Source: Balneolaceae bacterium
GTDB taxonomy: Bacteria > Bacteroidota > Rhodothermia > Balneolales > Balneolaceae
Reading direction: 5' to 3'
NCBI GenBank assembly: GCA_035638715.1
Contig: DASQZL010000110.1
Span: forward strand, 1-40,370
Length of the DNA: 40,370 nt
Each line of letters starts with the position of its first letter. Positions within the stretch are counted from its first letter, which is position 1. The position numbers and the translations under genes are program-made. Of the stretch, positions 1,076 through 38,214 are shown in pieces. The notes beneath the pieces are model-generated. The model worked only from the letters and a program-made list of their open reading frames with translations. It had not been told where the DNA came from and ran no database searches.

Positions 1076-1085
1076 AAGCTGAGTT

Positions 1086-11924: not shown

Positions 11925-12959
11925 CTAACTTCGTTTTGATTTCATCCGGACGTGCCCGGGAATCAAATCATCAAGGCAATTGCATCCGAGGAGCGTCATA
12001 ATAATTTTCAATTGGCGTTTCCATCGTTGAACCAAACTTTCCAAGCCTTCATACCCTCCCTGGTCCACCGCTTTAATTATCGGCCCGGCAGCAGCACAAA
12101 AGTCTGCCCCCAGGCAAAAGGCTTTAGCAATATCAAAACTACTACGGATACCGCCGGAGGCAATAACGCTAAACTCATATTCATTTTTCAGTTGCACCAC
12201 TTGCTCGAGAGCTTCAGCTGTTGGGATACCCCATTCATCGAACATCGTATCCGGATTTTGATTGGAGGGGCGCCGGTTTTCAACCTTGGACCAGCTCGTC
12301 CCTCCTGCCCCGGCTATATCAATTACATCAACATTGTTTTGAAGCAGTCGTTCAGCAACGGCACCCGAAATGCCTGCACCGGTTTCCTTCACAAAAATAG
12401 GCAGATTGCTTTCCTCCTTAAGCTGACGAATTCCATCTTCAATACCTTTGAAATTCCGGTCGCCTTCAGGCTGCATTAATTCCTGCAGCGGGTTCAGGTG
12501 AACAATGATGGCATCAGCACGAATACTTTGTACAAGCAATTCACGATTTTCTTTTGATAACCCGTCGATAAGCTGTGCACCACCGATATTTGAGGCAATA
12601 AAAGCAGTGGGAGCTTTTTCACGGACGATTGAGAAACTCTCAATCGTACTTTCGTCCTCCAGCATCACACGCTGGCTGCCCACCCCAAATGGCAGATTGT
12701 ATGCTTCGCAAAATTCTGCCAAAACCGCATTGACGGCTGTTCCGTCTATATAGCCGCCGGTCATCGAAGAAATAAACAATGGGAAGGAATAAGTTCGTCC
12801 CAGGAAGGAGGCTTCAGTTGAAACTTTATCAATATCAACTTCGGGGAGGGCATTATGAACAAAATCATAATGGGCAAATCCTGTATCACGCTTATAATTC
12901 ATATCGCCCCCCACTGTCAGGTCAACATGATCCTTTTTTCGTTGTTTGATATTACTCAT
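11925..12959 (-). CDS. fni: Type 2 (FMN-dependent) isopentenyl-diphosphate delta-isomerase
   Basis: N-terminal RKKDHVDL, SSMTGG, VKETGAGIS and AGAGGTSW segments characteristic of IDI-2 TIM-barrel enzymes. Confidence 0.9.
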   Translation of the reverse strand: MSNIKQRKKDHVDLTVGGDMNYKRDTGFAHYDFVHNALPEVDIDKVSTEASFLGRTYSFPLFISSMTGGYIDGTAVNAVLAEFCEAYNLPFGVGSQRVMLEDESTIESFSIVREKAPTAFIASNIGGAQLIDGLSKENRELLVQSIRADAIIVHLNPLQELMQPEGDRNFKGIEDGIRQLKEESNLPIFVKETGAGISGAVAERLLQNNVDVIDIAGAGGTSWSKVENRRPSNQNPDTMFDEWGIPTAEALEQVVQLKNEYEFSVIASGGIRSSFDIAKAFCLGADFCAAAGPIIKAVDQGGYEGLESLVQRWKRQLKIIMTLLGCNCLDDLIPGHVRMKSKRS

Positions 12960-13019
12960 AAGTTGTAATGACTTTTATGAAATATACCTCATATTACTGT
13001 GCAACATATCACTGTTCAG

Positions 13020-14042
13020 TCATGATTCCGAGCGTTTTACCCGCACAGCATGATAGCCTTCTTCGGCGAGCCAAAAACCTACTCCCGGGATGGCAGTAAT
13101 AATTTCCTGCACCCGTGTAGCTAACGAGATGGCAATGAGTTCAGAGGGTGACAACCCTATAAAAGCGGATAGTAAAGCATAGACACTTTCCTGTATGCCT
13201 AATCCACCCCAAATAACAAAAGCTGCACTTCGAACACCAAAGGTTATCAGCCGAAGTGTTACGGCATCTATGATGTTTATCGGGGTATTCATCAGCCACG
13301 CTGCGAACCAAATTTCGCTTGCCATTGCAATATCGCCTGCAACCCGTATCACAACAGAAATGATAAAATTCCGGGGATGACGGTAAATCCCATCAAGGTG
13401 CTGTTCTATTTCATCTGCTTTTTCCCGGGCCGAGGATAAAAATCCACCGTCCTTTCCCGACCATTTTTCAAGCACTTTGGAAACGCCGGATGAACGCTGC
13501 AGGCGAATAAAAAAATAGGTCCCTACAGCAAGGATTAAACAAATGGAAGGGATTAAAATTAAAATTTTTTCATTCACCGACTGCGTTAACATCAATAACA
13601 TCCCTAATATCAAAATAACGATTGTCGAAACGGCGTGAGCGGTTTTATCTGCTATCAGGGATGAAATCGTTGTAGTATTATCCACATTTCTGTTATTCAG
13701 AAAACTACCACGTACGAAAATACCACCGATAGTGGCTGTCGGCAGTAGCCGGTTGATTGACTGGGCAAACCAGAATCCCCGGATAAACAGGCTGTCGCGG
13801 GGCAGATTCTTGCCGGGGAATACAAATTTCCATCCGTAAGCACGGGAGCACAATTCAAATGGATAAAAAAGGGCCAACAGTAATAAGGCAGGTCCGCCCT
13901 TTGCAATAGCTTTGGAAAATTTGGAAAAGCCGGTCCACCAGATTAATACGATCAGAATAATGATACCCGCCGCTACGCCAATTACTGATGATATTCTGCT
14001 CCAGGATGGTCCGGAGTTCTGACTTTGTTGTTGGTTGCTCAT
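13020..14042 (-). CDS. Flippase-like membrane protein (lysyl-PG-synthase TM region / UPF0104 family), HpnL-like
   Basis: 340-aa polytopic protein with the family-typical N-terminal helix followed by a …FELCSRAYGWKFVF… segment and LLPTATIGGIFVRG. The HpnL assignment rests on context, since hopanoid genes lie on both sides. Confidence 0.6.
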   Translation of the reverse strand: MSNQQQSQNSGPSWSRISSVIGVAAGIIILIVLIWWTGFSKFSKAIAKGGPALLLLALFYPFELCSRAYGWKFVFPGKNLPRDSLFIRGFWFAQSINRLLPTATIGGIFVRGSFLNNRNVDNTTTISSLIADKTAHAVSTIVILILGMLLMLTQSVNEKILILIPSICLILAVGTYFFIRLQRSSGVSKVLEKWSGKDGGFLSSAREKADEIEQHLDGIYRHPRNFIISVVIRVAGDIAMASEIWFAAWLMNTPINIIDAVTLRLITFGVRSAAFVIWGGLGIQESVYALLSAFIGLSPSELIAISLATRVQEIITAIPGVGFWLAEEGYHAVRVKRSES

Positions 14043-14089
14043 TATTTATGGCATGATCAATAAATATACCTGTAAAGGAAAATAGGCAA

Positions 14090-15487
14090 TTAACCACTCA
14101 CTGCAAAGCGGGTTAAGTGACGGGCTGTCGTCCATATAGGGCCTCCAATACTATGCACTTCATCCAGGGTTTCCTCAAAAGCTTCGAGGAACCAGTCAGC
14201 GTCACCTTTATTAATCATTAACGGGGGGAGAATTTTTATGATGTCAACGTTATGAGCTGCAACCTGCGTTAAAATGTGATGATCTTCAATAAGTGGCATG
14301 ATAATGGCCTGCGGGAATAATGATTGATTCGTCGGATGCATCATCTTCCACGCCGCTCTGTAGCGCAGGGCCTTGGGTTTGCCAAACTCAATACCAATCA
14401 TCAGCCCTTTGCCCCGGACTTCCTTAAGGAAATCATACTTTGGAATCATTGCGCGAAGCTTCTCAAGCATATATTCACCGGTTTTTTGAGCATTTTGCGG
14501 CAGGTTTTCCGATTCGGTTACTGCCAGGCTTCCCAAACCGCAGGCCATGGGCAGGCCTCCGCCTCCGAAGGTTGATGAGTGAACTTTACCCCGATCCATA
14601 CTTGAGTAAACCGAATGATAGATTTCATCCCGCATCAGCACCGCACCAACGGGCACCATGCCGCCGGAAAGCGATTTCGAGACTAATACCATATCAGGTT
14701 CAAGGTCCGGTACATGCTGATAACAGAATAATTTTCCTGTGCGTCCCATACCGGTCTGAATTTCATCCATGATGAAAACGGCATCATGCTTATTACACAA
14801 TTTCTGGACGCCCAGCATATATTCAGCGTTAGCCGGGTAAACGCCTTTCCCCTGAATGGGTTCTAAAATCACGCCGGCGATGTCATTTTTTTGAAATGCC
14901 CGTTCAAGGGCATCCAGATTGTTCAGCGGAACATTTACAGGACCGGGCAGAAAGCTGACGAATCCATCCTTAAAATTACTCGAACCATTAATCGACAATG
15001 ATCCGTAAGTGAGTCCGTGAAAGGCATGTTCGCAGTACACTACTTTTTCTTTGCCGGTCGTTGCACGACAAAATTTTAAAGCTGTTTCCACGCATTCCGT
15101 ACCGGAATTACCGAAGTACACTTTATCGAGATGTGGAACTTTCTCCAGCAGGGCTTCAGCAAGAAGGCCGGTCAATGGATTGGTCCCCATCGCCAATTTC
15201 CAGGTATCGTTAAGCTCGAGATAATCGTTTATGACCTCTTTTATGACCGGATGATTGCGACCCATATTGAACATGCCAAAACCGGAAAGAAAATCGAGAT
15301 ATTTTTCTCCTTTATCATCCCAGAGATAAGCTCCCCGCCCTTCTACATAGTTACGGTTGAACCCGATAGTTTTAAGTACTTTTGAAAATACGGGGTTGAC
15401 GTGCTTTTTATAAAGATCAGAATTTTTGTCGCGGTTTTCCTCAACCAGTTTTTTTAAGTCGAATCCGCCAGTGCTGGATTTATTCAT
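14090..15487 (-). CDS. Class-III PLP aminotransferase (ornithine/putrescine aminotransferase-like), HpnO-like by context
   Basis: GNSGTECVETALKF, DEIQTGMGRTGK, the Schiff-base lysine context VSKSLSGG, and HSSTFGG. The family call is firm; the hopanoid substrate is inferred from context. Confidence 0.8.
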   Translation of the reverse strand: MNKSSTGGFDLKKLVEENRDKNSDLYKKHVNPVFSKVLKTIGFNRNYVEGRGAYLWDDKGEKYLDFLSGFGMFNMGRNHPVIKEVINDYLELNDTWKLAMGTNPLTGLLAEALLEKVPHLDKVYFGNSGTECVETALKFCRATTGKEKVVYCEHAFHGLTYGSLSINGSSNFKDGFVSFLPGPVNVPLNNLDALERAFQKNDIAGVILEPIQGKGVYPANAEYMLGVQKLCNKHDAVFIMDEIQTGMGRTGKLFCYQHVPDLEPDMVLVSKSLSGGMVPVGAVLMRDEIYHSVYSSMDRGKVHSSTFGGGGLPMACGLGSLAVTESENLPQNAQKTGEYMLEKLRAMIPKYDFLKEVRGKGLMIGIEFGKPKALRYRAAWKMMHPTNQSLFPQAIIMPLIEDHHILTQVAAHNVDIIKILPPLMINKGDADWFLEAFEETLDEVHSIGGPIWTTARHLTRFAVSG

Positions 15488-15783
15488 AAAATATAATTAC
15501 CTCAATAGGGTTGAAAAACAAGATATATATTGAATTAAAGATAACAAAAATCATTATTGCTTGTGCAACTTTTTCTGGAATCCGATTTCTGTTTTTCAAT
15601 TATACAGCCAGTTTCGTACCTTCCTGAAAGATCATCCAGAATATTCAGCTTTTTAGTAGCTGCAAACTTTCATTTTAATAAAATTGCAGCATTTGTAGTC
15701 GAAGATATCTCTAATCAGTCCGTTTTTTTTATTATTTTCAGATAAAAGTTTCATAGCCGAACCTGTCTAAAATTACTGGTAAA

Positions 15784-16914
15784 ATGAAAGAAAATCTCCG
15801 CTTCCCGTCACCTGAATTATCACAGCATCCACTAATGGGGGCAAGGCTGGGAAATCTCTTTCAGCTGTTTTCGCAACAGCAGGGAGTGCTACCTTCTAAG
15901 TGGCCTTTTGTCCTGGCTTTTATGGGGTCTGCACTGGCACGCAGCCCCTTTTCGATGATTGACCGGTGGATTGCATCCCGGAAAAAAGCGGTAGAAAATT
16001 TGGAACCCCCGGTTTTTATTGTCGGATACTGGCGATCCGGAACGACCCATTTGCATAATTTACTGGGTCAGTCGCCGGACCTCGGTATCATCACCCCGCT
16101 CGGAAGCGGCCTGCCCGATGAGTTGTTAACACTTGGCACATGGTTTGAGCCGTTGCTCCAAAAAGGGCTGCCCGAAGATCGTGGCGTTGACCGTGTAGCT
16201 GTTAACCCCCAATCTCCACAGGAGGATGAAATTCCGGTAGCGAACCTGCAGAAATTATCGGTTTTTCACGCTCTCTACTTTCCTGCCAATTTCCGCAAAA
16301 ATTTTAATCGGGGCGTTTTTTTTGATGATGTTTCTGATAATGAAATTGAAGAATGGAAATCCGCGATGCTCTATTTTATTGGCAAGGTAGCCATCCATCA
16401 GGATAAGCAACCCCTGCTGATAAAAAATCCCGTTTACACAACACGTATTCATCTGCTTCGCGATCTCTGGCCTAACGCTCGCTTCATCCATATATATCGG
16501 AATCCCTACCGGGTTTTTCGGTCAACAAAGTATTACTACCCTGAAATAATTGATGAACTGGGTCTGCAGGCCTACGACCCTGCGGAGATTGAACCCGTAA
16601 TTTTAAATTCTTACCCGAGAATGCTCAATAAATTGTATGAAGACACAAATGACTTGCCGGAAAATCAATTTGTTGAAGTACAATATGAAAAACTGGACGA
16701 AAATCCGGTAGAGGTGCTTAAGAAAATTTATCACCAGCTGAATTTACCGGGCGGCTGGGAAGCGGCAAAGTCCAGCACTGAAGCATATTTAAAATCTATT
16801 GCTGACTATCGCAAGAACACCTATTCGTATGCCCCCGAGGATTTTGAAAAAGTAAATGAAAATTGGGGCAAATATGTAAACAAATGGGGATATGATTTAC
16901 CTGATACAGAGTAA
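15784..16914 (+). CDS. PAPS-dependent sulfotransferase family protein (paralog 1)
   Basis: 5'-phosphosulfate-binding loop GYWRSGTTHL (RSGTT at 16033..16047). FIHIYRNPYRVFRS is the region where a 3'-phosphate-binding motif would be expected. Clearly paralogous to 17166..18353. Confidence 0.8.
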   Translation: MKENLRFPSPELSQHPLMGARLGNLFQLFSQQQGVLPSKWPFVLAFMGSALARSPFSMIDRWIASRKKAVENLEPPVFIVGYWRSGTTHLHNLLGQSPDLGIITPLGSGLPDELLTLGTWFEPLLQKGLPEDRGVDRVAVNPQSPQEDEIPVANLQKLSVFHALYFPANFRKNFNRGVFFDDVSDNEIEEWKSAMLYFIGKVAIHQDKQPLLIKNPVYTTRIHLLRDLWPNARFIHIYRNPYRVFRSTKYYYPEIIDELGLQAYDPAEIEPVILNSYPRMLNKLYEDTNDLPENQFVEVQYEKLDENPVEVLKKIYHQLNLPGGWEAAKSSTEAYLKSIADYRKNTYSYAPEDFEKVNENWGKYVNKWGYDLPDTE

Positions 16915-17165
16915 TAGGAATATCTATTGAACCGTCCCCCATCTTCCGTAGCGGGCGAAAGTCTTAAAAACCTATGAAAATTCTCTGCTTGAGTGAGGCG
17001 TGGCTACTCCTGTGTGTTTTTATGGAGTCGGCAGACATTATGCCGTTGAATTGAACAGCAGAATTAAGTTTAACAGGATGAATATAAGAATTGCGCCTGT
17101 TATGTATCCCAAACTCAGGCTAACAGCTCCTTTCTTTCATAAAAGGCTAAAGAATCTCAAAATTG

Positions 17166-18353
17166 TCACGAAACGGCTGTATTTTTGACCTCCTCGTGCT
17201 GTAATGGATATAATTTTGTAGCATATCCAAATGCATCAAAACAATGGCCCCAGGCATCTGCAATTTTCCTTTTCTTGGCATTGGGCAGGCTGGGATAATT
17301 GTTGGTCTCATAGTCAGCGATAGATTCGATATATTCCAGCAAGCCAGGTTTAATTTCAGAAAAAGATTCCAATCCCAAATCGTGATAAATTTTTTCAATT
17401 GCCGCAACACGATTCTGAACGAGGTCCTCATAAGCCAACTGCGTTAGATTACCCTCCGGTATCAATGCTTTATCTTTTAAAAAAGTGTGATACATCTTTT
17501 TATATCGCCAAATGACGTAATCTTCCAACCCCTGCAGGTTCTTGGATTGATAACAGCAGTACGGCAGTGATTTCCGCTCCATCTTCATAGTAGATTGATA
17601 TACGCGATACGGGTTTCTGTAAATATGAATGAACTGCGCGTCCGGAAAAACCTCAAGCAATAATTGAATCTTAGCCGTATTAGTCGGAGCCTTGAAAAGT
17701 ATTGTAGCATCCGGATCACTTCGATATAACAGTTTTTGAGCAAATTTATAAAGCGCTTTTTTCCATTTCGTCCGTTGATTGCTACTGGCATCCTTAAGGC
17801 TTAGCATATATTTAAAATGATCACGGAATTCAGGGAAATAGCGGCTCATGTGGGTCGATAAGAATGTGCTGGAACAGAGTCCCCACTCCTCGCCAAGCGG
17901 CGAATCAGCAGAATGTTTTACTTTATCCTGGGGGCGTTCATCCGGGCTGAACCAAGAGGCAAGTTTATGGGCAATATTTTTGAATGTTAATAAAGTCTCA
18001 GGGAATAGTGTTTCGGTGACGGTTGGATATACAAATCGTTTATCATTTGTTAACAGTCGCCATAAATGTGTAGTTCCGCTTCGATGATGGCCAATGATAA
18101 AAATGGGAGATTTAACCTCAATCGATTCTAAATCCGATCGGTATTTTTTTTGCTCCCAATGAGCAAGTGCTGTATTCATAAGACTCATTGTCGTAGTAAA
18201 GGCGGTACGGGGCCAATATCGCGGGGGAATAGTGTTGCCATATTTTTTTAGAACCTTTTTCCATTCGCTGTAAACCGTTCCCGCCAACGGACTAAATATC
18301 CAGCGGGCAAGATTTCCGATAAGTTCCTGCCTCAATGACAATGTTATAGCCAT
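17166..18353 (-). CDS. PAPS-dependent sulfotransferase family protein (paralog 2)
   Basis: IIGHHRSGTTHLWRLL (RSGTT at 18069..18083, minus strand), FIHIYRNPYRVYQS and the C-terminal IADYETNNY, which parallels IADYRKNTY in paralog 1. Confidence 0.8.
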   Translation of the reverse strand: MAITLSLRQELIGNLARWIFSPLAGTVYSEWKKVLKKYGNTIPPRYWPRTAFTTTMSLMNTALAHWEQKKYRSDLESIEVKSPIFIIGHHRSGTTHLWRLLTNDKRFVYPTVTETLFPETLLTFKNIAHKLASWFSPDERPQDKVKHSADSPLGEEWGLCSSTFLSTHMSRYFPEFRDHFKYMLSLKDASSNQRTKWKKALYKFAQKLLYRSDPDATILFKAPTNTAKIQLLLEVFPDAQFIHIYRNPYRVYQSTMKMERKSLPYCCYQSKNLQGLEDYVIWRYKKMYHTFLKDKALIPEGNLTQLAYEDLVQNRVAAIEKIYHDLGLESFSEIKPGLLEYIESIADYETNNYPSLPNAKKRKIADAWGHCFDAFGYATKLYPLQHEEVKNTAVS

Positions 18354-18546
18354 AAAAATTAATTAGTGGGAAAAATTAATAATATGTATAATATAATCGA
18401 GCTAAATTTATTTTTATTATAAAGTTTCTCAAATAAATTTTATCAAATTAAAAGAACAATTAGCCGAGCTAATTTAAATGATATAATATAATTATTTTCC
18501 AGTCCGTCTCGTTCAAAATAGATTTTTAAAAAGACGATATGGAAAA

Positions 18547-19671
18547 TTAAATTTCATTTTTAACTACCCGTCCTCTCCAACGCATTCGTTCGCCCTGCCA
18601 GTAACGTATGGCTGAGGTCCATGTCATGGCCAAAAAAAGTGAAGCTGTAAGAGGAAAAGCTATAGCCCAGGACCAATTTAGGTTGTAATACCAAAGAGTG
18701 GGTAGATAAGTACATAACATAATTAAAACGGTGACCAGCGATGCCCAAAGCAGGTATCCCGAAAATAAAAATACCCCGACAATCGGAAGTACATAGGAAA
18801 AAAACATTAATAACGTACATAATAGCAAAAGTGTGATAGAATAGCTAAGCTGTGTATATGCCGTACGTGCTACCATATTCCATAGCTCGGTTAAACCGGT
18901 ATAGGGGCGTATGCTTTGTGCGGAGTGGGTCAACCCAAGCCATGTCCGATACCCCTGATCTTTCACCTGCCTGGCAAGTGTACAATCGTCAATTAATGTA
19001 TCTTTCAGAGAAGCAAAGCCGCCAATATCATCAAGCACCTGTTTCTTCGTCAATATACATCCTCCCGCGGCTGCAGCTACAAGATCGGAATCAGAATTCG
19101 ATACCCTAAACGGGTACAATAGCTTAAAAAAATATATGAATGCAGGCATCAGTAATTTGTCCCAAAAGCCGGTAAATGTAGGCATAGCCATGAGCGAAAT
19201 AAAAGCATACGGCTCACTTTTCAGTCGCTCTCGCAGGCCGCTAATCACCCCTTGTTTAAGTTTAATATCGGCATCAAGGAGCATGACAAAAGAAGTTTTA
19301 ACGCGTTTCCTACCCTGCTCCAAAGCCCATAATTTACCGCTCCATCCCTGTGGCCGCCGGCTGCCTTTTATGATGGTTAAATGATCGCCGCCAATTTCTT
19401 TTGCAATTCGGGCCGTATCATCATCAGAATTATCATCGATGACCAATATGTTCAAATTTTTTCCCTGTCGACATACTGCAGAAATGGTTTGATTGATGAC
19501 CTCAGACTCATTTCTGGCGGGTATAAGCACGGTTACATCACTTAAATCAACGAGATTACTTTTATCATCGGTTGACTCCCAGCTTTCTTTCGTTCGCCAT
19601 GGCTGCCAGGGAAGCACTAATATGATAACCCAGATGACCAGCGAAACGATTGGCAGTGTTGAGATAAGCAT
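18547..19671 (-). CDS. Membrane-anchored family-2 glycosyltransferase, HpnB/HpnI-like
   Basis: N-terminal TM helix, then the GT2 core VLIPARNE…IDDNSDDDT…LLDADI, then several C-terminal TM helices. This architecture matches hopanoid-associated GT2 enzymes. I cannot decide between HpnB and HpnI by eye. Confidence 0.78.
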   Translation of the reverse strand: MLISTLPIVSLVIWVIILVLPWQPWRTKESWESTDDKSNLVDLSDVTVLIPARNESEVINQTISAVCRQGKNLNILVIDDNSDDDTARIAKEIGGDHLTIIKGSRRPQGWSGKLWALEQGRKRVKTSFVMLLDADIKLKQGVISGLRERLKSEPYAFISLMAMPTFTGFWDKLLMPAFIYFFKLLYPFRVSNSDSDLVAAAAGGCILTKKQVLDDIGGFASLKDTLIDDCTLARQVKDQGYRTWLGLTHSAQSIRPYTGLTELWNMVARTAYTQLSYSITLLLLCTLLMFFSYVLPIVGVFLFSGYLLWASLVTVLIMLCTYLPTLWYYNLNWSWAIAFPLTASLFLAMTWTSAIRYWQGERMRWRGRVVKNEI

Positions 19672-19682
19672 ATAGCAAGTAT

Positions 19683-19726
19683 ATACAAAATAAAAAAGGC
19701 CCGATAAGATTTGTTATCGGGCCTTT
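19683..19726 (-). terminator. Strong rho-independent terminator immediately after hpnH
   Basis: Perfect 13-bp stem AAAGGCCCGATAA (19695-19707) / TTATCGGGCCTTT (19714-19726) with a 6-nt loop. On the minus strand it is followed by TTTTATTTTGTATA. Confidence 0.75.
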
Positions 19727-19740
19727 CAGTAATATTAATT

Positions 19741-20904
19741 TTATGCTATTGCTTCTGCTTCTTTATCCTTCTTTTTTTCTTTTTCTTCGAGTGCCTCTTT
19801 ATAAGCAGTGGGTTTCAGCGGATTAGACTCCTTGGCAAAGTCTTCCCACTCGTATTGACGTGGAATATCAGGAGCCATTTCGCCTTCTGTCTTAGGCCCG
19901 GTAATGGATTTTTTCAGTGCTTTAAGCGGGTGCGAGAAGGCGTCCTCGGCGGCTGTTCCTTCATAACCGCAATGAGCCATGCAATTATCGCACTTTGGAT
20001 TGCGACCGGTGCCCCATTTCTCCCAGTCGGTTTCCTCCATTAATTCTTCGAAGCTTTGAGCATAGCCTTCATTTACCAACAGGTAGCAGGGGCGTTGCCA
20101 TCCGAAAATGTTATAAGTGGGCATACTCCAGGGCGTGCATTGATACTGTTGGTTCCCGGCCAGAAAATCCAGAAACAGGCTGCTGTGATTAAATGACCAC
20201 CTACTGCCCCGCTCTTCTTGTTCCCTGAAAATTTCTCTGAACAGATTTTTCGTTTTATCTCTGCCCAGAAAACTGTCTTGATCGGGAGCAAATTCATAGC
20301 TGTATCCAGGAGAAACATCAATGCCGTCTACGCCAATATCCTCAACAAAATCGAAGAAATCAGCTACCCGTTCAGGTTCTGCATTATCAAACAGGGTGCA
20401 ATTGATATCGACATTAAACCCTCTTCCCTTGGCCATCTTAATTGCCTCAACAGCCCGGTCAAAAACTCCTTCACGCTCTACAGCCTTGTCATGTTCTTTT
20501 CTCAGGCCATCAAGGTGAATGGTGAATGTTAAATAAGGAGAAGGCTCAAAAAGGTCCAGTTTCTTTTTAAGCAGCACGGCATTCGTACATACCGATACAA
20601 ATTTTTTCCGATCGATAATACCCTGAACAATTTTATCAATCTCTTTATGGATAAGCGGTTCTCCGCCGGGAATAGCTACCATAGGCGCCCCGCACTCATC
20701 AACTGCTGACAAGGCATCTTCCACGCTCATGCGTTTTTTCAATATCTCTTTGGGATAAGCAATCTTCCCACACCCGGAACATGACAAATTACACTGGAAC
20801 AAGGGTTCAAGCATCAGTGTCAATGGATACTTATCCTCCCCCTTTAATTTCTTTCCGAGAATGTATTTTGCCATTTTAAACGTTTGCCTGAATGATACAC
20901 CCAT
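19741..20904 (-). CDS. hpnH: Adenosyl-hopene transferase (radical SAM) HpnH
   Basis: Radical-SAM CNLSCSGC (Cx3Cx2C) at 20770..20793. The N-terminal MGVSFRQTFKMAKYILGKKL…YPLTLMLEP and downstream GGEPL are typical of HpnH. Divergent from sqs-shc. Confidence 0.88.
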   Translation of the reverse strand: MGVSFRQTFKMAKYILGKKLKGEDKYPLTLMLEPLFQCNLSCSGCGKIAYPKEILKKRMSVEDALSAVDECGAPMVAIPGGEPLIHKEIDKIVQGIIDRKKFVSVCTNAVLLKKKLDLFEPSPYLTFTIHLDGLRKEHDKAVEREGVFDRAVEAIKMAKGRGFNVDINCTLFDNAEPERVADFFDFVEDIGVDGIDVSPGYSYEFAPDQDSFLGRDKTKNLFREIFREQEERGSRWSFNHSSLFLDFLAGNQQYQCTPWSMPTYNIFGWQRPCYLLVNEGYAQSFEELMEETDWEKWGTGRNPKCDNCMAHCGYEGTAAEDAFSHPLKALKKSITGPKTEGEMAPDIPRQYEWEDFAKESNPLKPTAYKEALEEKEKKKDKEAEAIA

Positions 20905-21423
20905 AGTTTTAAAGTTTTAAATTAGAAAGAATATTTTTTTTTAGCTATTTCCATAACTATTCGTAATTCAAAATCATTCGTGCGCGGAACATTTTTTTTG
21001 ATTTAATCTCAATTAAGATAAGAATTGAAAATTAATTCAAATAATCCTACAATATATATACACACTTAAATTTTCACCTTTTGACATCTATTCCAAATAT
21101 CACCATTTTCCAACCTCTATCAAAATTTTATATTTATTAATAGATAATGAATATATATAACTTGCATTTTTCTCTATATAGCCTATTTTGTTCGCTTTAA
21201 AAGGAGAAATAATTTATAAGTGGAATGGTGTTAAAAAACGAGGGGAACTAATTATTCATAGCAATTAAATATCAGGGATATGTTGGAAAATCAGCAATCA
21301 TCTTTAATGTTGTACGCAAATACATGAGTATAATTTAAAATATCAGTAATTTTCACTGCCAACATGTTATTAATAAAAAGGATTTCATTGTTCATACTAT
21401 AATAGTTTATCATAATTAACTAT

Positions 21424-22542
21424 ATGAAAGATAAAAAAAGCAATAGCAATACAAATACCGTTTCTAAATCCAATGACAAAGATGGTATAAGCAATTTATC
21501 TTATTCATCACAAAGAATTAAAAACTTCCGTGAAAATTATTCCGATACAGAACTCCAGTCTTATTTATTAGAAAACGTATCACGCACTTTTGCTCTTACT
21601 ATACCGGAGCTTCCAGATCCGCTTATTCGTGTTGTTTCTAATGCTTACCTGCTCTGCCGAATTGTGGATACCGTTGAAGATGAGCCAAATTTAACGCTGT
21701 CGCAGAAAGAAAACTTTTGCAGTCGCTTTATAGATGTTGTTTCAGGGACGGAGGACCCGGTACAATTTAGCCGTGACTTGGCTCCTTATCTTTCTAATGA
21801 AACCCTGGAAACGGAAAAAGAGCTAATTCTGTTGACAGACAGGGTCATCAATATCACCCATCAATTTAATGAACGACAGCAAAAAGCGATGGAACGGTGT
21901 ATTCGCATCATGGCAGATGGCATGGCGTTCTTTCAGCAACAGGGTTCAAAGCATGGGTTGCGAAATCTGCAGGATGTTAACAAATACTGCTATTACGTTG
22001 CTGGGGTTGTAGGTGAAATGCTGACGGAACTTTTTTGTATTTATTCCCCTGCGATTAACGAAAATCATGATGAATTGATGGATCTTGCGGTTTCATTTGG
22101 TCAGGGATTGCAAATGACAAACATCCTGAAGGACGTGTGGGAGGATTATGACCGATCGGCGTGCTGGCTACCCAGAAACTATTTTGAAAATGACCTGGCA
22201 AATTTAGAACAGGGAAAATCAACCGAAGATTTTAAAGAAGGTATTGATGAACTGATCGGGGTTACCCATGGACACCTGCAGGATGCAATGAGTTATATTT
22301 TACTCATTCCAGCTGAGGAAAAGGGTATTCGCCGTTTTTGTTATTGGGCTGTCGGAATGGCTATATTAACCATAAAGAAAATTCATAAAAATTTAGAATA
22401 TACAAATGGTGATGAGGTAAAAATTTCGCGGAAAAGTGTAAAAGCAACAATTTTATTTACAAATATTACGGTCGGAAGCAATCGTCTCTTAAAGTTGTTA
22501 TTTGACGCCACCCGCTGGGGGCTTCCTGATCCCAGAAAATAA
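21424..22542 (+). CDS. sqs: Squalene synthase (farnesyl-diphosphate farnesyltransferase, single-enzyme SQS type)
   Basis: SRTFALTI, YLLCRIVDTVEDE (DTVED at 21667..21681), YCYYVAGVVGEMLT and LQMTNILKDVWED parallel the conserved SQS segments. About 45 aa of Ser/Asn/Lys-rich N-terminal extension. Confidence 0.85.
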   Translation: MKDKKSNSNTNTVSKSNDKDGISNLSYSSQRIKNFRENYSDTELQSYLLENVSRTFALTIPELPDPLIRVVSNAYLLCRIVDTVEDEPNLTLSQKENFCSRFIDVVSGTEDPVQFSRDLAPYLSNETLETEKELILLTDRVINITHQFNERQQKAMERCIRIMADGMAFFQQQGSKHGLRNLQDVNKYCYYVAGVVGEMLTELFCIYSPAINENHDELMDLAVSFGQGLQMTNILKDVWEDYDRSACWLPRNYFENDLANLEQGKSTEDFKEGIDELIGVTHGHLQDAMSYILLIPAEEKGIRRFCYWAVGMAILTIKKIHKNLEYTNGDEVKISRKSVKATILFTNITVGSNRLLKLLFDATRWGLPDPRK

Positions 22543-22579
22543 GCTTAACTGTGTTTTAGAACGAAGATCAAACTTTAAA

Positions 22580-25288
22580 ATGGAAAAGAAGCATTCTCCT
22601 AAAAAGGCAACCTCAATAAGCGAAAACAACGATAAGCAAACACATCTCGACCAAGCAATAAAAAAAGCAAGATCTTCCCTCCTTTCTGATCAGCATGAAG
22701 ACGGATATTGGTTTTATGAACTTGAAGCCGACTGCACGATTCCCGCTGAATACATCATGATGATGCACTACATGGATGAAATTGACGAGGAATTGCAGGA
22801 AAAAATTGCTGTCTATTTGCGGCGTCATCAGAATGAAGCCGGCGGGTGGCCCCTTTATTATGGAGGGAAATCCGATTTGAGCTGTTCAGTCAAAGCATAT
22901 TATGCGCTTAAAATGGCCGGAGATGATATTGATGCGCCTCATATGACCAAGGCCAGGGAACTCATTCTTTCCATGGGAGGTGCGGCCAAATCCAATGTTT
23001 TTACACGTATCGCCCTGGCGCTTTTCGAACAAATTCCCTGGCGCGCGGTCCCGTTTATTCCAGTGGAGATTATGACCTTTCCCGACTGGTTTCCTCTCCA
23101 CCTGCAAAAGGTTTCCTACTGGTCAAGAACCGTTATGGTTCCGTTGTTCATTTTATATAGCCTGAGAGCCAAAGCTCGTAATCCGCATAATGTCGGGGTT
23201 CAGGAGCTTTTTTTAGTTCAGCCTGAAAAAGAGGACGACTATTTTAAAATTCGTTCTATGACAAATCGTTTTATTTTTGGCCTTGAACGAATTGGCCTGA
23301 AACTTGAGCCATATATCCCCAACCGCTTCAGAGAACATGCAATAAAGAAAGCGGAAGAGTGGTTTGTGGCTCGCCTCAACGGTGAAGATGGACTTGGAGC
23401 AATTTTTCCAGCGATGGTTAATGCGTATGAAGCCCTCGATTTGCTGGGTTATCCCGAAGATCATCCCCACCGGAAAACTGCTAAAAAAGCACTTCAAAAA
23501 TTATTGGTTGTCAGAGAAGATGAGGCCTATTGTCAGCCCTGCCTGTCTCCCATCTGGGACACCATTTTATCTGCAGGCGCCATACAGGAAACAGGCATCG
23601 CAGACCAGGATCAAGAACAAGCCCTCGTCAATGCAACCGAGTGGCTGGCTAACAAACAGTTAACGGATGAGCCCGGTGACTGGCGAAATGACCGCCCCGA
23701 TTTGCAAGGTGGCAGCTGGCCGTTTCAGTTTCGCAACGATTACTATCCGGATCTTGACGATACGGCATTCGCCGCTTTTGTGTTGCATTCTATCGATTCG
23801 GAGAAGTACAAGGACAATATTTTGCGTGCGGCCCGCTGGCTGAAAGGCATGCAATCCAGTAATGGCGGGTTTGCGGCATTTGAATATGACAACACCTACT
23901 ACTATTTAAACGAGATACCATTTGCAGATCACGGGGCCTTGCTGGACCCTCCTACTGCGGATGTAAGTGCCCGCTGCGCAATGCTTTTCGGTCAACTGGA
24001 AAATGAATATCCGGAGTTTCGTGAGCCGTTAAACCGCTGCCTTGATTATTTATTTGAGGTACAGGAAGAAGATGGTTCCTGGTTTGGACGCTGGGGAACA
24101 AATTATATTTATGGGACCTGGTCGGTACTGATTGCCTGTGAGTCCGCCGACATTCCTCCGGAAGAGCCGGAAATTCAGCGGGCCGTTGCCTGGCTGAAAC
24201 GGAAACAGCGTGAAGACGGCGGCTGGGGAGAGGATAACTGGAGTTACCATGATCCAGAAACCCGTGGTGAAGCAGATCGCAGCACTTCCTTCCAGACAGC
24301 GTGGGCTGTAATGGGACTGATTGCAGCCGGCGAGGTGGACTCTGAAGCTGTCAGAAGGGGTATTGATTTTCTACTGTCAACCCAGGAAGAAGATGGATTC
24401 TGGAGCGATCCGGAATTCACGGCTCCCGGTTTCCCCCGGGTTTTCTATTTGAAATATCACGGGTATACAAAATTCTTTCCACTCTGGGCGCTGGCTAAAT
24501 ATCAACGTAAAATAGATGATGAAAAATTAATCTCCAATGTGCAGGATAAGACGTCCAAAAATAAAATTGGTATTGTCGTAGCCCTCCCCCGTGAATTGCA
24601 GACGCTTGGCAATCATCATAAAGCCGGCAGTGAAATTATTCATCACTCTGAACGGATATTGATCGGACAGTCCGGCGTCGGAGCTAAGAATGCAAAAAAG
24701 GCAGCCGAACGCCTTATCAACCACGGAGCCAATATTTTAATCAGCTGGGGTACGGCTACGGCCCTGACTCCCGATATTGCCCCGGGAACAATAGCAATCC
24801 CGGATAAAGTACTGACTACCGAACAGGATATTTTTGAAACGGACCGTAGGTTGAGAGAACATTTATTCAACGAACTGCCGCTTGATGGTATGTTCGTGCA
24901 CGATACCATTTGTGAAACGGACGAAATACTTGCCAATACATCACAAAAGACGACTTTGGCAGCCCGTACAAACGCCAGGATAGCGGATATGGAGACTGCA
25001 GCTGTTGCCAGAGTAGCCAAAGAACATGATATTCCATTCCTGGCCATTCGATCCGTGTCTGATTCGGCTGAAATGCAGATTCCCCGGGCAATTAAGAATA
25101 ATGTAAATGATGGCACGCCAAACACTTTGGGAATTTTGAGTGATGCAATATTAGAACCGAAAGATTGGTTGCCAATGATCAGCCTTTCTTATAATTTTAA
25201 CAAAGCTCAAAAGTCACTGAGTAAAATGGCTCAAATTATATTACCCTATTTGAATCGCCAGGCAGATAATATAAAACTTCAAAAATAA
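22580..25288 (+). CDS. shc: Squalene-hopene cyclase fused in frame to a C-terminal HpnG-type nucleosidase/phosphorylase domain
   Basis: Start moved to ATG 22580 (MEKKHSPKK), because the ORF-track start at 22502 overlaps the sqs 3' end. The SHC part (22580..~24511) has DGYWFYELE, repeated QW-type motifs and the catalytic DLDDTA at 23750..23767. A 17-aa linker follows. The part from 24563..25285 reads KIGIVVALPRE…GQSGVGAKNAKKAA…LISWGTATAL…ADMETAAVA…FLAIRSVSD, a PNP/UDP-1 nucleosidase fold as in HpnG. There is no stop codon between the two parts. Confidence 0.88.
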   Translation: MEKKHSPKKATSISENNDKQTHLDQAIKKARSSLLSDQHEDGYWFYELEADCTIPAEYIMMMHYMDEIDEELQEKIAVYLRRHQNEAGGWPLYYGGKSDLSCSVKAYYALKMAGDDIDAPHMTKARELILSMGGAAKSNVFTRIALALFEQIPWRAVPFIPVEIMTFPDWFPLHLQKVSYWSRTVMVPLFILYSLRAKARNPHNVGVQELFLVQPEKEDDYFKIRSMTNRFIFGLERIGLKLEPYIPNRFREHAIKKAEEWFVARLNGEDGLGAIFPAMVNAYEALDLLGYPEDHPHRKTAKKALQKLLVVREDEAYCQPCLSPIWDTILSAGAIQETGIADQDQEQALVNATEWLANKQLTDEPGDWRNDRPDLQGGSWPFQFRNDYYPDLDDTAFAAFVLHSIDSEKYKDNILRAARWLKGMQSSNGGFAAFEYDNTYYYLNEIPFADHGALLDPPTADVSARCAMLFGQLENEYPEFREPLNRCLDYLFEVQEEDGSWFGRWGTNYIYGTWSVLIACESADIPPEEPEIQRAVAWLKRKQREDGGWGEDNWSYHDPETRGEADRSTSFQTAWAVMGLIAAGEVDSEAVRRGIDFLLSTQEEDGFWSDPEFTAPGFPRVFYLKYHGYTKFFPLWALAKYQRKIDDEKLISNVQDKTSKNKIGIVVALPRELQTLGNHHKAGSEIIHHSERILIGQSGVGAKNAKKAAERLINHGANILISWGTATALTPDIAPGTIAIPDKVLTTEQDIFETDRRLREHLFNELPLDGMFVHDTICETDEILANTSQKTTLAARTNARIADMETAAVARVAKEHDIPFLAIRSVSDSAEMQIPRAIKNNVNDGTPNTLGILSDAILEPKDWLPMISLSYNFNKAQKSLSKMAQIILPYLNRQADNIKLQK

Positions 25289-25302
25289 CTCTTGCCCCTT
25301 TC

Positions 25303-26304
25303 ATGAACGTAGATGATACGACTCAATCATTAAATAAAGATGTACAGAAACATATAGACCGTATTAATGAACTGATTACTAACGGCGATTTCCAGGATAG
25401 TCCCGATACTTTATATGAACCAATTCGGTATATTTTAAATACCGGTGGCAAGCGCTTGCGACCACTATTGACACTTTTTGGCTGTTACCTTTTTTCTGGT
25501 GAGACTGAGAATGCTTTGATGCCGGGTATAGGTATTGAGCTGTTTCATAACTTTACCTTGATCCACGACGATATCATGGATAATGCCCCCCTGCGGCGTG
25601 GTCAGGAAACGGTTCACCGGAAGTGGAATCAAAATGTCGCCATCCTTTCCGGAGATACCATTTTGTTTAAGGCCTATCATTATCTTATGCAGGTAAATGA
25701 ACCGCTTATAAAGGATGTCATCATGCTTTTTAATGAGTGTGCCATTGATGTCTGTGAAGGACAGCAGTTTGATATGGATTTCGAAAATCGCGAGAGGGTA
25801 AGTGAAGAGGAATATCTGAAAATGATTCGATTAAAAACCGCTGCGGTGCTGGGATTTTCACTTCAGCTTGGAGCTTTAATAGGTGGTGCCAATGTAGAAA
25901 ATACGGAAGCACTTAAAAATTTTGGCATTAATATTGGACTTGGTTTTCAATTGAAAGACGATCTTCTGGATGTCTTCGGAGATTTTGGTAAATTTGGTAA
26001 GCAAGTAGGCGGAGATATAATTGCAAATAAGAAAACATATTTGTTAATTAAAGCAATGGAACTTGCTAATGCAGAACAAAATAAAAAACTTCAAGGGTGG
26101 TTACATGGTGATTTAAGCAACGAAGAAAAAGTAAAACGTGTTACCCAATTATATAAAGAACTCCATATTAGGCAGCTAACCGAACAGAAAATTAGTGAAT
26201 TTTTTGAAATCGCTTTAACTTATTTAAATAAGATCGATTGTCCAGAGCATAGAAAAGAAGAATTAGCTGATTTTTCAAGTTCATTGATAGAACGTGAGAA
26301 CTAA
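25303..26304 (+). CDS. Short-chain trans-polyprenyl diphosphate synthase (FPP/GGPP synthase family)
   Basis: First Asp-rich motif DDIMD at 25567..25581, followed by LRRG. Second motif FQLKDDLLD. Product chain length cannot be read off reliably. Confidence 0.88.
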   Translation: MNVDDTTQSLNKDVQKHIDRINELITNGDFQDSPDTLYEPIRYILNTGGKRLRPLLTLFGCYLFSGETENALMPGIGIELFHNFTLIHDDIMDNAPLRRGQETVHRKWNQNVAILSGDTILFKAYHYLMQVNEPLIKDVIMLFNECAIDVCEGQQFDMDFENRERVSEEEYLKMIRLKTAAVLGFSLQLGALIGGANVENTEALKNFGINIGLGFQLKDDLLDVFGDFGKFGKQVGGDIIANKKTYLLIKAMELANAEQNKKLQGWLHGDLSNEEKVKRVTQLYKELHIRQLTEQKISEFFEIALTYLNKIDCPEHRKEELADFSSSLIEREN

Positions 26305-26343
26305 TTAGAAAAATTTAATGTTAACTAAAAAAAGGTGTTCGTT

Positions 26344-28266
26344 ATGGAAAGTGAAATTAGTGCCGGCCCTTTACTTGAACCCATCCATTCGCCAGATGAT
26401 TTAAAGAAACTGGATCCGGATCAACTGGTTGAATTGTGTGATGAATTGAGAGATTATATTATTGAAACGGTCTCAGTCCATGGCGGGCATTTTGGAGCAA
26501 GTCTGGGCACCGTTGAACTTACTGTGGCCCTGCACTACGTATTCGATACCCCCAGAGATCGTCTGGTATGGGATGTTGGACATCAAGCCTATGGACACAA
26601 AATTTTGACCGGACGGCGCCCTCAATTCCATACGAACCGTAAATATAAAGGATTGGCTGGTTTTCCAAAGCGGGAAGAAAGTGAATATGATACCTTTGGT
26701 GTTGGCCATTCAAGCACTTCTATTTCTGCTGCTTTGGGAATGGCTACAGCCCGCGATCTTGACGGAGGCGATAACCACGTCGTTACAATCACCGGCGACG
26801 GGGCCATGACGGCGGGATTAGCTTTTGAGGGACTCAATAATGCCGGGTATCTCAATAAGGATATGATTGTCATCCTTAATGATAATGATATGTCTATAGA
26901 TCCCAATGTTGGTGCTCTTAATGAATATTTGGTTGAGATAGCAACCAGTAAAACGTTTAATAAACTGCGTGATGAGATCTATAACATGCTCAGCCAGTTT
27001 AAATCGGCCGGAGAGAAGATGCAGAAAGTTGCCTCCAGGCTTGAAAAAGCTATTGGTACGGCTATCACTCCCGGCGGACTATTTCAGGCGCTGGGTTTCA
27101 AGTATTATGGCCCTGTGGATGGACATAATATCGATACGCTCCGTCGTACACTCAATGATCTGAAGGATATTCCGGGTCCAAAGCTGTTGCACGCCGTTAC
27201 AGTTAAGGGGAAAGGATTTGCCCCGGCGGAGAGAGAGCAAACGAAATGGCACTCACAGAGCAGCCCATTCGATAAAATAACCGGAGAATCGCTTGCAAAA
27301 GATAACGGTCCGGATATTCCGCGTTATCAGCATGTTTTTGGAGATGCTATTGTCGAATTGGCTGAGGAAGATGATCGTATTGTCGGTATTACCCCGGCGA
27401 TGCCCAGCGGATCCAGCCTCTGGCCGCTCATGAAAGCATTTCCGGAACGGGCCTTCGATGTAGGTATTGCGGAACAACACTCCATCACATTTGCAGCCGG
27501 CCTGGCTACTGAAGGCAAAAAAGCATTTGCCGCCATCTATTCCACCTTCTTGCAACGGGCTTATGACCAGGTAATTCACGATGTCGCTATTCAAAATCTG
27601 CCTGTCGTATTTTGTATTGATCGTGCCGGACTGGTCGGGGCTGATGGACGTACCCACCATGGAGCTTATGATATTTCATATCTCCGTAATGTACCGAATA
27701 TGATTGTGTCTTCTCCCCTCAATGAACAGGGACTGCGCGATCTTATGTACACTGCATCTAAATATGAAGAATCGCCATGGGCTATTCGCTATCCCCGCGG
27801 AGAGGCAACGGGTATGGAAATGCGCGATGAATTTCACTCCGTAGAAATAGGAAAAGGAGAATGCCTGCGCGAGGGCGATGAAATAGCGATTCTTAGTTTT
27901 AGCCCCATTGGCAATTACGTAATTGAGGCAGCGGATAGACTCGAAGAAGAGGGTATCAACGTTGGACACTATAATATGCGGTTTGCCAAACCGTTGGATA
28001 CCGAATTAATTGATCAGGTTTGTCATTCGTATGAGCGAATCATAACAATCGAGGACGGTACTGTACTCGGTGGTTTTGGCGGGGCCGTTGCCGAATATCT
28101 ATCGGATAAACCCTCTCGCGTACCTGTAACAATTATGGGTATCCCGGATCGGGTTATTGAACATGGCACGCAGCGGCAGCTTCATGATGAAATTGGCATT
28201 GGTCCGGATGGCATCATAGAGCAGGTCAAGAGCGTTCAAAAGGGAATTGTTGCCCAAACAAGTTAA
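26344..28266 (+). CDS. dxs: 1-deoxy-D-xylulose-5-phosphate synthase
   Basis: GHFGASLGTVELTVALHYVF, GHQAYGHKILTGR, the ThDP motif GDGAMTAGLAFEGLNNAG and GIAEQH. I prefer ATG 26344 over the GTG at 26335 used by the ORF track. Confidence 0.95.
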   Translation: MESEISAGPLLEPIHSPDDLKKLDPDQLVELCDELRDYIIETVSVHGGHFGASLGTVELTVALHYVFDTPRDRLVWDVGHQAYGHKILTGRRPQFHTNRKYKGLAGFPKREESEYDTFGVGHSSTSISAALGMATARDLDGGDNHVVTITGDGAMTAGLAFEGLNNAGYLNKDMIVILNDNDMSIDPNVGALNEYLVEIATSKTFNKLRDEIYNMLSQFKSAGEKMQKVASRLEKAIGTAITPGGLFQALGFKYYGPVDGHNIDTLRRTLNDLKDIPGPKLLHAVTVKGKGFAPAEREQTKWHSQSSPFDKITGESLAKDNGPDIPRYQHVFGDAIVELAEEDDRIVGITPAMPSGSSLWPLMKAFPERAFDVGIAEQHSITFAAGLATEGKKAFAAIYSTFLQRAYDQVIHDVAIQNLPVVFCIDRAGLVGADGRTHHGAYDISYLRNVPNMIVSSPLNEQGLRDLMYTASKYEESPWAIRYPRGEATGMEMRDEFHSVEIGKGECLREGDEIAILSFSPIGNYVIEAADRLEEEGINVGHYNMRFAKPLDTELIDQVCHSYERIITIEDGTVLGGFGGAVAEYLSDKPSRVPVTIMGIPDRVIEHGTQRQLHDEIGIGPDGIIEQVKSVQKGIVAQTS

Positions 28267-29862: not shown

Positions 29863-29874
29863 AAGGATATGAGG

Positions 29875-33770: not shown

Positions 33771-34109
33771 TTAAACTGAAAAAGATTCACCACAAGAGCA
33801 CGTCCGGTTGGCATTTGGATTATGAAAATGAAAGCCTTCGCCCTCAAGCCCTTCGGTATAATCCAGTTCTGTACCTGACAAGTACAGAAAACTGCGCATA
33901 TCAACGATGAGTTTAATGCCGTTGTCCTCAAAAAGCTGATCTTTTTGAGACTCGTCCGGTTCCCCCTCATCAAAATCAAGTTCATAGGTAAGACCGGAAC
34001 AGCCGCCGCTTACCACGCCGACTCGCAATTTAACATCGTCATCGAAATTATGTTCGCTCTGCAATTGATGAATTCGCTGAGCAGCCCGATCACTTACAGT
34101 AATAGACAT
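33771..34109 (-). CDS. A-type Fe-S cluster carrier (HesB/IscA/SufA/ErpA family)
   Basis: 112 aa. GGCSGLTYELDFD and the C-terminal CSCGESFSV give the three conserved Cys. Confidence 0.88.
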   Translation of the reverse strand: MSITVSDRAAQRIHQLQSEHNFDDDVKLRVGVVSGGCSGLTYELDFDEGEPDESQKDQLFEDNGIKLIVDMRSFLYLSGTELDYTEGLEGEGFHFHNPNANRTCSCGESFSV

Positions 34110-34132
34110 AATGCATTTGTCCTAAGTTCCGA

Positions 34133-34684: not shown

Positions 34685-34825
34685 ATTGCAAGAGTTTTTA
34701 TTTGTACTTATTCAATTTTGAAAACGAATGTAAACAGGATTTAGTTTCTTGTAATTGTACGAAATTCGGCAGTTAAACCATAAATTACAATCTGAAATTT
34801 AGGCACCATAGTTAAATAGCGAATT

Positions 34826-36070: not shown

Positions 36071-36098
36071 ATTTAGTCTGCTATCTACTATCTACGGG

Positions 36099-37424: not shown

Positions 37425-37427
37425 AAT

Positions 37428-38207: not shown

Positions 38208-38214
38208 GTTATAA

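Follow-up and report, generated by a model that had tools for sequence, protein, structure and literature searches.

Gene content of the locus

The 40,370-nucleotide contig DASQZL010000110.1 from a Balneolaceae bacterium (assembly GCA_035638715.1, positions 1 to 40,370 of the forward strand), in its full length referred to as the window, encodes at positions 11925–28266 what is almost certainly a cluster for bacteriohopanepolyol (BHP) biosynthesis. Besides genes for hopanoid formation, it carries a conserved tailoring module predicted to comprise an HpnO-like class-III aminotransferase (AT3), two distinct sulfotransferases (ST1 and ST2) dependent on 3'-phosphoadenosine 5'-phosphosulfate (PAPS) and an HpnL-like membrane protein. 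Eleven consecutive open reading frames (ORFs) span exactly this interval, and their assignment to the families named in an earlier note on this DNA was confirmed by the ORF positions and by NCBIfam and Pfam profile scans of the window ORFs of at least 100 aa. Likewise, all motifs quoted in that note were found.

Three proteins of the hopanoid core pass the cutoffs of curated equivalog models. The squalene-hopene cyclase (SHC) domain, encoded together with a C-terminal HpnG domain in a single ORF (22580–25288, plus strand) and bearing a DLDDTA motif at residues 417–422, reaches 865.2 bits with TIGR01507 (cutoff 431.1). The putative adenosylhopane synthase HpnH (19741–20904, minus strand; TIGR03470 at 535.3 versus 225.05 bits) combines a radical-SAM domain (PF04055) with DUF3463 and shows the characteristic CxxxCxxC motif (CNLSCSGC, residues 38–45). 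The third protein is HpnB, a hopene-associated glycosyltransferase of family GT2 (18547–19671, minus strand; TIGR03469 at 383.5 versus 379.25 bits) with hydrophobic segments at both its N- and C-terminus, for which a function has not been established (PMC12583986). The HpnG domain and AT3 are backed by best family match and synteny, and the reading of the locus as a hopanoid/BHP cluster in the earlier note was thus upheld. The proposed glycosylation by an HpnI-type GT2 enzyme was not supported, as this glycosyltransferase is HpnB and scores only 53.1 bits with the HpnI model (cutoff 310); HpnI, HpnJ and HpnK candidates are absent from the window according to the profile scans.

The HpnL-like gene (13020–14042, minus strand) encodes a protein with about five hydrophobic segments that belongs to the LPG_synthase_TM/flippase-like family (PF03706, 93 bits) and stays below the cutoff of the HpnL model (TIGR03476, 180.7 versus 195.65 bits). 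Hence, the profile comparison recommended in the earlier note placed SHC, HpnH and HpnB above their cutoffs, and HpnG, HpnL and HpnI below. In two recent surveys, PMC12583986 and a microsynteny study of shc neighborhoods, the function of HpnL is given as unknown. An HpnN protein of the MMPL or ACR_tran type is not encoded in the window, although present in the related loci L015, L019 and L103.

The sulfotransferases ST1 and ST2

The genes for ST1 (15784–16914, plus strand, divergent from the AT3 gene) and ST2 (17166–18353, minus strand) encode paralogues sharing 32% identity, neither of which has a transmembrane segment. Both match the Sulfotransfer_3 family (PF13469, 114.5 and 118.8 bits, respectively) and carry the 5'-phosphosulfate-binding (5'-PSB, RSGTT) and 3'-phosphate-binding (3'-PB, RNPxxVxxS) motifs for interaction with PAPS. 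In ST1, these elements are YWRSGTTH at residues 82–89 and RNPYRVFRS at residues 239–247, and the corresponding GHHRSGTTH and R246..S254 elements of ST2 are invariant in 24 homologues. ST1 and ST2 can therefore be regarded as bona fide Sulfotransfer_3 proteins with predicted sulfotransfer activity. Their description as an addition outside the canonical hpn set, already made in the earlier note, proved correct.

An AlphaFold (AF2) model of ST2 (pLDDT 89.4) was compared with known structures using Foldseek. The closest matches, covering the full length at a probability of 1.00, are the mycobacterial enzymes Stf9 (query TM-score, TMq, of 0.68) and Stf1 (0.64). The sulfotransferase domains of CurM and OLS as well as retinol dehydratase follow at TMq values of only 0.31–0.39, and the TPST and SULT folds are also much weaker matches. 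Sequence searches of the PDB with ST1 and ST2 only resulted in distant matches to Stf and CurM. A member of the Stf family, Stf3, sulfates hydroxylated menaquinone-9 (MK-9), hence an isoprenoid lipid (PMC7404182). The name Stf3 given to one orthologue is an automatic JGI label only. A P450 of the CYP128 type was found neither in the window nor in the ST-bearing loci examined.

The aminotransferase AT3

The class-III (omega-type) aminotransferase AT3 is encoded at 14090–15487 on the minus strand. PF00202 (307.6 bits) is the sole family match above cutoff, and the best NCBIfam match is the aldehyde-aminating aminotransferase domain of PigE. Homologues with 40–48% identity to AT3 lie in hopanoid clusters, among them a shc-hpnG locus of a Methylococcaceae metagenome-assembled genome (MAG) lacking sulfotransferase genes (L005). 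In a neighbor-joining (NJ) tree, the aminotransferase of an ST-less Methylococcaceae MAG, encoded directly downstream of shc-hpnG, nests among the ST-linked AT3 proteins, a placement consistent with all of these enzymes being of the HpnO type. Judged from family, synteny and tree, AT3 is probably HpnO in function.

The closest relatives of AT3 outside the Balneolaceae (58–62% identity) were found in MAGs of Planctomycetota and Gemmatimonadota and in one MAG of unstated taxonomy. In two of the three contexts examined, L105 and L107, a gene with 48–54% identity to ST1 is located divergently beside the aminotransferase gene, just as in the window. In L105 (8766–20857), this pair lies amid four sulfatase genes. 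The second pair is encoded at 2742–5621 of L107. The genomes bearing such stand-alone AT3-ST1 pairs include GCA_965658675.1 and GCA_046757845.1.

Conservation of the cluster in Balneolaceae

When one genome per GTDB species was scanned with the SHC-HpnG protein, 14 related loci were obtained. Four of these are from Balneolaceae MAGs and share the SQS-SHC-HpnG-IDS-DXS genes (SQS, squalene synthase; IDS, prenyl diphosphate synthase; DXS, the first enzyme of the methylerythritol phosphate (MEP) pathway), HpnH and HpnB at 55–76% identity, and the proteobacterial loci are much more distant, which assigns the cluster to a Balneolaceae type. The same gene set, rearranged, was found on one metagenome contig within this identity range. 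Its retention in the four MAGs and the contig argues for conserved clustering rather than chance. Accordingly, the synteny in relatives that had been suggested for comparison was indeed observed, albeit with rearrangements, and the classification as a Bacteroidota/Balneolota-like organism was corroborated by Balneolaceae MAGs being the closest relatives. In the NCBI taxonomy, Balneolaceae belong to the phylum Balneolota within the Bacteroidota/Chlorobiota group.

The tailoring genes take part in these rearrangements. The block of HpnL-AT3/ST1 and ST2 genes is found downstream of DXS in the Balneolaceae relatives and upstream of HpnB in the window. Despite this, genes of the ST1 and ST2 types have stayed together with AT3, HpnL and hpn genes in five Balneolaceae loci. 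In the relatives, an additional ST2-type paralogue, hence a third sulfotransferase, is inserted between ST2 and HpnL (L002, 16968–18098; L010, 15536–16636; L011, 13132–14229; L022, 8808–9938), which is missing from the window.

In the Balneolaceae locus L010 (217–2878), a histidine kinase with multiple PAS domains and a response regulator consisting of a receiver only are encoded immediately upstream of hpnB; both are absent from the window. These proteins could act as a cluster regulator. In L002, a 762-aa ORF occupies the corresponding position.

Linkage of sulfotransferase and hopanoid genes across lineages

A homologue search with ST2 and subsequent neighborhood look-ups revealed that ST2 relatives of at least 39% identity, if sufficient flanking sequence is available, reside in a hopanoid neighborhood in every case. 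In a cyanobacterial MAG affiliated with Leptolyngbyaceae, the gene orders ST-AT3-HpnH and SQS_PSY-HpnN-ABC-ST-HpnG-GT2 are found. The metagenome contig L019 encodes SHC, an IDS-SQS fusion and HMG-CoA reductase, followed by AT3-ST, HpnL, ST-HpnH-HpnG and HpnN. In L103, HpnH, HpnG and SQS are accompanied by an overlapping operon AT3-ST2type-ST1type-HpnL-HpnN. A deltaproteobacterial MAG (L104) shows an HpnH fragment, MlaC, HpnL and AT3-ST, and in L102 HpnL is located beside an ST gene. AT3-ST-ST, including an overlap of 4 bp, is present in a Geminicoccaceae MAG, where other hpn genes are lacking within 10 kb. Overall, LPG_synthase_TM genes adjoin aminotransferase or sulfotransferase genes in L002, L010, L011, L019, L022, L102, L103 and L104.

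The fusion protein of L019 (5084–8436), composed of a prenyl synthase and a squalene synthase (688 aa), is encoded beside HMG-CoA reductase and SHC on a contig not assigned to a taxon. This locus is a mevalonate-fed hopanoid cluster with an AT-ST-HpnL-ST module.

In an NJ tree of more than 100 ST sequences, the hopanoid-linked proteins form two monophyletic clades, ST1-type and ST2-type, and each locus with enough flanking sequence contributes one member to either clade. As control, a metagenome scan was evaluated comprising 80 loci, most with ST relatives of 32–38% identity. Those with such distant relatives include 34 loci of 6 kb or more (L020 and L021 among them), not one of which matches SHC, HpnH, SQS, AT3, HpnL or HpnB, whereas all nine in-clade ST loci match at least one of these. 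The distant relatives L020 and L021 were also looked up directly and show unrelated contexts, in the latter case a nonribosomal peptide synthetase (NRPS) cluster. The absence of hopanoid genes from all control loci makes the hopanoid link a clade-specific rather than a family-wide property. Overall, ST genes recur beside the hopanoid AT3 in several unrelated groups of bacteria, which is suggestive of a hopanoid lipid that is sulfated. The conserved ST pair associated with AT3 and HpnL across distant lineages and the single-ORF fusion of SHC and HpnG had both been overlooked in the earlier reading of the sequence.

The SHC-HpnG fusion

The ORF encoding SHC and HpnG is open from a TTG at position 22502 and can be translated without interruption over 928 codons, the start most likely being the ATG at 22580 rather than the upstream TTG. 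The SHC domain extends over about 22640–24514 (TIGR01507 over residues 47–671) and the HpnG domain over about 24563–25240, with TIGR03468 matching residues 713–908 and PF01048, which passes its cutoff, residues 688–874. TIGR03468 is the best PNP-type match of this domain, yet its score of 144.3 bits does not reach the cutoff of 187.1. An hpnG gene is located downstream of shc in 13 relatives, but in all 13 related loci having both, SHC and HpnG are encoded separately, and only the window shows the fusion. In ten of these loci, the two genes are in different reading frames, and in L001, L003 and L010 they are separated by an in-frame stop. The latter three had appeared in tblastn as single high-scoring segment pairs, from which a widespread fusion could be read; this was ruled out by the stop codons seen on translation and the differing frames of the other ten loci. 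At its junction (about 24515–24565), the fusion in the window represents either a local event, explicable by loss of a single stop codon, or an assembly error.

Isoprenoid and squalene supply

Four genes of the cluster are related to precursor supply. The squalene synthase (21424–22542, plus strand; PF00494, 173.8 bits) bears the motifs DTVED (residues 82–86) and DVWED (residues 237–241). Its score with TIGR01559 (123.8 bits) is below the cutoff of this model but far above those with the HpnC and HpnD models (42–51 bits), and its position upstream of shc is retained in 12 out of 14 related genome loci. This predicted single-enzyme SQS is taking the place of HpnCDE. The short-chain (FPP/GGPP-type; FPP, farnesyl diphosphate; GGPP, geranylgeranyl diphosphate) prenyl diphosphate synthase (25303–26304, plus strand; PF00348, 250.9 bits) shows an archaeal-type first aspartate-rich motif (FARM), that is, DDIMD (residues 89–93) without insertion, preceded by F at position −5 and T at position −4. 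Its best NCBIfam matches are IdsA/GGPP_syn models, all below cutoff, and the predicted chain length is ambiguous between FPP and GGPP as judged from the FARM residues.

DXS (26335–28266, plus strand; TIGR00204 at 809.7 versus 466 bits) is 74–76% identical to the DXS encoded in the same position of the Balneolaceae loci. The type 2 isopentenyl-diphosphate isomerase IDI-2 (11925–12959, minus strand; TIGR02151 at 359.9 versus 281.3 bits) adjoins the cluster only in the window and not in the Balneolaceae relatives. Dxr, IspD, IspE, IspF, IspG and IspH were not detected in the window by the profile scans. The designation of the cluster as self-contained from central metabolites onward, as put forward in the earlier note, consequently does not hold, since DXS is the sole one of seven MEP steps encoded in the window and HpnN as well as PAPS-synthesis genes are absent, too.

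Non-coding features and flanking genes

An AT-rich intergenic region of 519 bp (20905–21423, 23.7% GC) separates hpnH from the divergently oriented sqs gene and presumably serves as promoter region. No Rfam match was obtained for it, and an alignment with three Balneolaceae relatives did not give a convincing conserved element. Scanning the cluster for sigma-70 promoters and terminators resulted in counts not above those of shuffled sequences; one strong terminator-like hairpin stands out between hpnH and hpnB (19694–19727, minus strand), with a 14-bp stem including six GC pairs and a T-run, identified by consensus match only. This hairpin suggests that hpnH may be transcribed apart from hpnB and ST2. 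In the whole window, neither an Rfam search at gathering thresholds nor a tRNA scan gave a match.

As stated in the earlier note, housekeeping genes flank the cluster: BamD, NadD, an LdcA-like protein and SurA are encoded on one side and a GNAT protein, a pfkB kinase, a GH32 enzyme and the suf operon on the other. Adjoining the cluster on its downstream side, the GH32 beta-fructosidase and the pfkB-family sugar kinase form a pair (28960–31470, minus strand) that looks like a sucrose or fructan utilization unit. The complete suf operon for Fe-S assembly (33771–39829, minus strand) encodes SufB, SufC, SufD, SufS, an Nfu-type scaffold and a SufA-like protein, followed by DUF2480. Three further ORFs of 187–304 aa, at 452–1649 (minus strand) and 6743–7657 (plus strand), show no Pfam or NCBIfam match.

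Proposed pathway and alternative explanations

From the observed families, motifs and linkage we infer, with a probability of roughly 55%, that the sulfotransferases of this locus yield sulfated amino-BHPs. In the proposed route, DXS would feed the MEP pathway, whose remaining enzymes would be encoded elsewhere, IDI-2 would balance isopentenyl and dimethylallyl diphosphate, and the prenyl synthase would provide FPP for conversion to squalene by the single-enzyme SQS. The SHC domain would then cyclize squalene to hopene, HpnH would add the 5'-deoxyadenosyl moiety and the HpnG domain would remove adenine, giving ribosylhopane. The open-chain aldehyde of the latter is the presumed substrate of AT3, which would aminate C-35 to 35-aminobacteriohopanetriol. 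Subsequently, the cytoplasmic ST1 and ST2 would each transfer sulfate to the side chain, at two positions, from PAPS supplied from elsewhere in the genome. Acceptors may be hydroxyl groups, the amine or both (O- or N-sulfation), resulting in a zwitterionic or anionic sulfated amino-BHP. Finally, the HpnL-like protein may flip the charged lipid across the inner membrane, from where HpnN would continue the export in other lineages. HpnB is not given a step in this route.

Several findings weigh against sulfated amino-BHPs as the products. Neither the window nor the flanks of L002, L010 and L022 yielded a gene for PAPS synthesis when searched for cysC, cysDN and sat. HpnG and HpnL score below the NCBIfam cutoffs, and HpnO, for which a curated model is lacking, is hard to distinguish from other class-III aminotransferases (PMC12583986). 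The ST and AT3 trees were built by simple NJ and carry no support values, and all relatives are MAGs or metagenome contigs. Moreover, hopanoid genes are missing within 10 kb on either side of the AT3-ST1 pairs of L105 and L107, and L017 encodes AT3 and both sulfotransferases without another hopanoid gene in the same range. In L108 (10001–12728), an AT3 homologue with 49% identity is followed by an unrelated Sulfotransfer_3 gene, and hopanoid genes are again lacking within 10 kb. An FGE-sulfatase gene lies about 2 kb from this pair. The AT3-ST pair could therefore act on a different aldehyde or amine substrate.

These stand-alone units, with the pair of L105 amid sulfatases and that of L108 involving a different sulfotransferase, are what would be expected if the AT3-ST unit processed a non-hopanoid compound, such as a lipid aldehyde, a polyamine or an envelope component, and were merely a frequent neighbor of hopanoid genes in loci making ordinary BHPs. 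This is unlikely, as five or more unrelated contexts show the unit inside a hopanoid cluster, one being the overlapping operon ending in HpnL-HpnN, and none of the 34 control loci shows hopanoid linkage. The pairs of L105 and L107 rather mark AT3-ST1 as the deepest conserved unit, which is not always near hpn genes, and they do not contradict a hopanoid role because many hopanoid producers have their hpnO gene outside the hpn cluster (PMC12583986). A hopanoid acceptor other than an amino-BHP can also be envisaged, with the sulfotransferases modifying the hydroxyl groups of bacteriohopanetetrol (BHT) or a sugar added by HpnB to give sulfated BHT or sulfated glycosyl-BHP. In favor of this, HpnB adjoins ST2 in the window and also occurs in the loci of Balneolaceae and cyanobacteria, and sugars are sulfated by many enzymes of the Sulfotransfer_3 and NodH-like types. 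However, L019, L103, L104 and L017 lack HpnB within 10 kb, and in nearly all loci AT3 adjoins an ST gene or is translationally coupled to it, making this alternative decidedly improbable. Least expected, at quite low odds, is an activating role in which sulfate serves as leaving group for an elimination, cyclization or substitution in the side chain and the final lipid is unsulfated. CurM, OLS and retinol dehydratase, which would be the models for such chemistry, are among the structural matches of ST2, but much weaker ones than Stf9 and Stf1. Furthermore, a partner enzyme for the follow-up reaction was not seen, and two conserved paralogues with a neighboring flippase-like protein or exporter of the RND (resistance-nodulation-division) type better fit a charged end product.

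Beyond the window, the synthesis of sulfated amino-BHPs may be more widespread. Sulfated (amino)BHPs might constitute an unrecognized class of bacterial membrane lipids, made by a module of HpnO, ST1-type, ST2-type and HpnL proteins, with or without HpnN, that would be spread over Balneolaceae and cyanobacteria as well as deltaproteobacterial and other lineages. For this generalization, the odds are slightly short of even.

Implications

Hopanoids, the bacterial equivalents of sterols, are major molecular fossils, with variants in the polar side chain serving as markers for taxa and environments. The locus described here documents the gene capacity for hopanoid synthesis in a Bacteroidota-related lineage, in which SHC was reported to be absent or extremely rare (shc microsynteny study). 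The new element is a conserved, predicted sulfation module in an otherwise known kind of hopanoid cluster. In the literature searched, whose coverage is incomplete, no description of sulfated hopanoids or BHPs or of sulfotransferases in hpn clusters was found, and a prior description is possible; the text of the shc microsynteny study does not contain a word beginning with "sulf".

If the proposed pathway is true, a charged head group with different membrane behavior would be added to the hopanoids, and new diagnostic polar BHP biomarkers would become available. The Balneolaceae link might indicate marine or saline settings. We also infer that a sulfated amino-BHP would easily be missed by current BHP methods based on positive-ion detection or acetylation. 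In addition, the conserved module provides a concrete hypothesis for the role of HpnL and would represent the first functional context for this orphan family.

Comparison with known systems

The cluster has the SHC, HpnH and HpnB families, an HpnG-type domain and HpnL-like and HpnO-like proteins in common with the canonical hpn clusters of Rhodopseudomonas palustris TIE-1, Burkholderia, Zymomonas and Methylococcus, and the side-chain logic would be the same, proceeding from hopene via adenosylhopane and ribosylhopane to the aminotriol. In contrast to these systems, the window encodes a single SQS in place of HpnCDE and lacks HpnA, HpnI/J/K, HpnM, HpnN and HpnP/R. On the other hand, it shows the SHC-HpnG fusion, co-located genes for DXS, IDI-2 and the prenyl synthase, and the two embedded sulfotransferases. 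With the HpnO pathway to aminobacteriohopanetriol it shares a class-III aminotransferase beside hpn genes, with homologues encoded directly downstream of shc-hpnG in the Methylococcaceae MAG. The likeness is one of family, synteny and tree, and differs in that the aminotransferase here and in several other lineages is paired with sulfotransferases.

Among the sulfotransferases, sterol-sulfating enzymes such as human SULT2A1 provide a functional analogy only, being catalysts that use PAPS to sulfate a polycyclic lipid of the triterpenoid or sterol type, whereas the structural match to ST2 is weak (TMq about 0.3–0.38). Another sterol sulfotransferase that ST1 and ST2 may resemble is the Bacteroides cholesterol sulfotransferase. 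Structurally, ST2 best matches the mycobacterial Stf1 and Stf9 of the family that includes Stf3 of sulfomenaquinone synthesis, and the match extends over the entire protein with its long helical region at the N-terminus. The identity to these enzymes is only 14–16%, however, a CYP128-type P450 partner is missing, and instead of menaquinone genes, the context of ST1 and ST2 is formed by hopanoid and aminotransferase genes.

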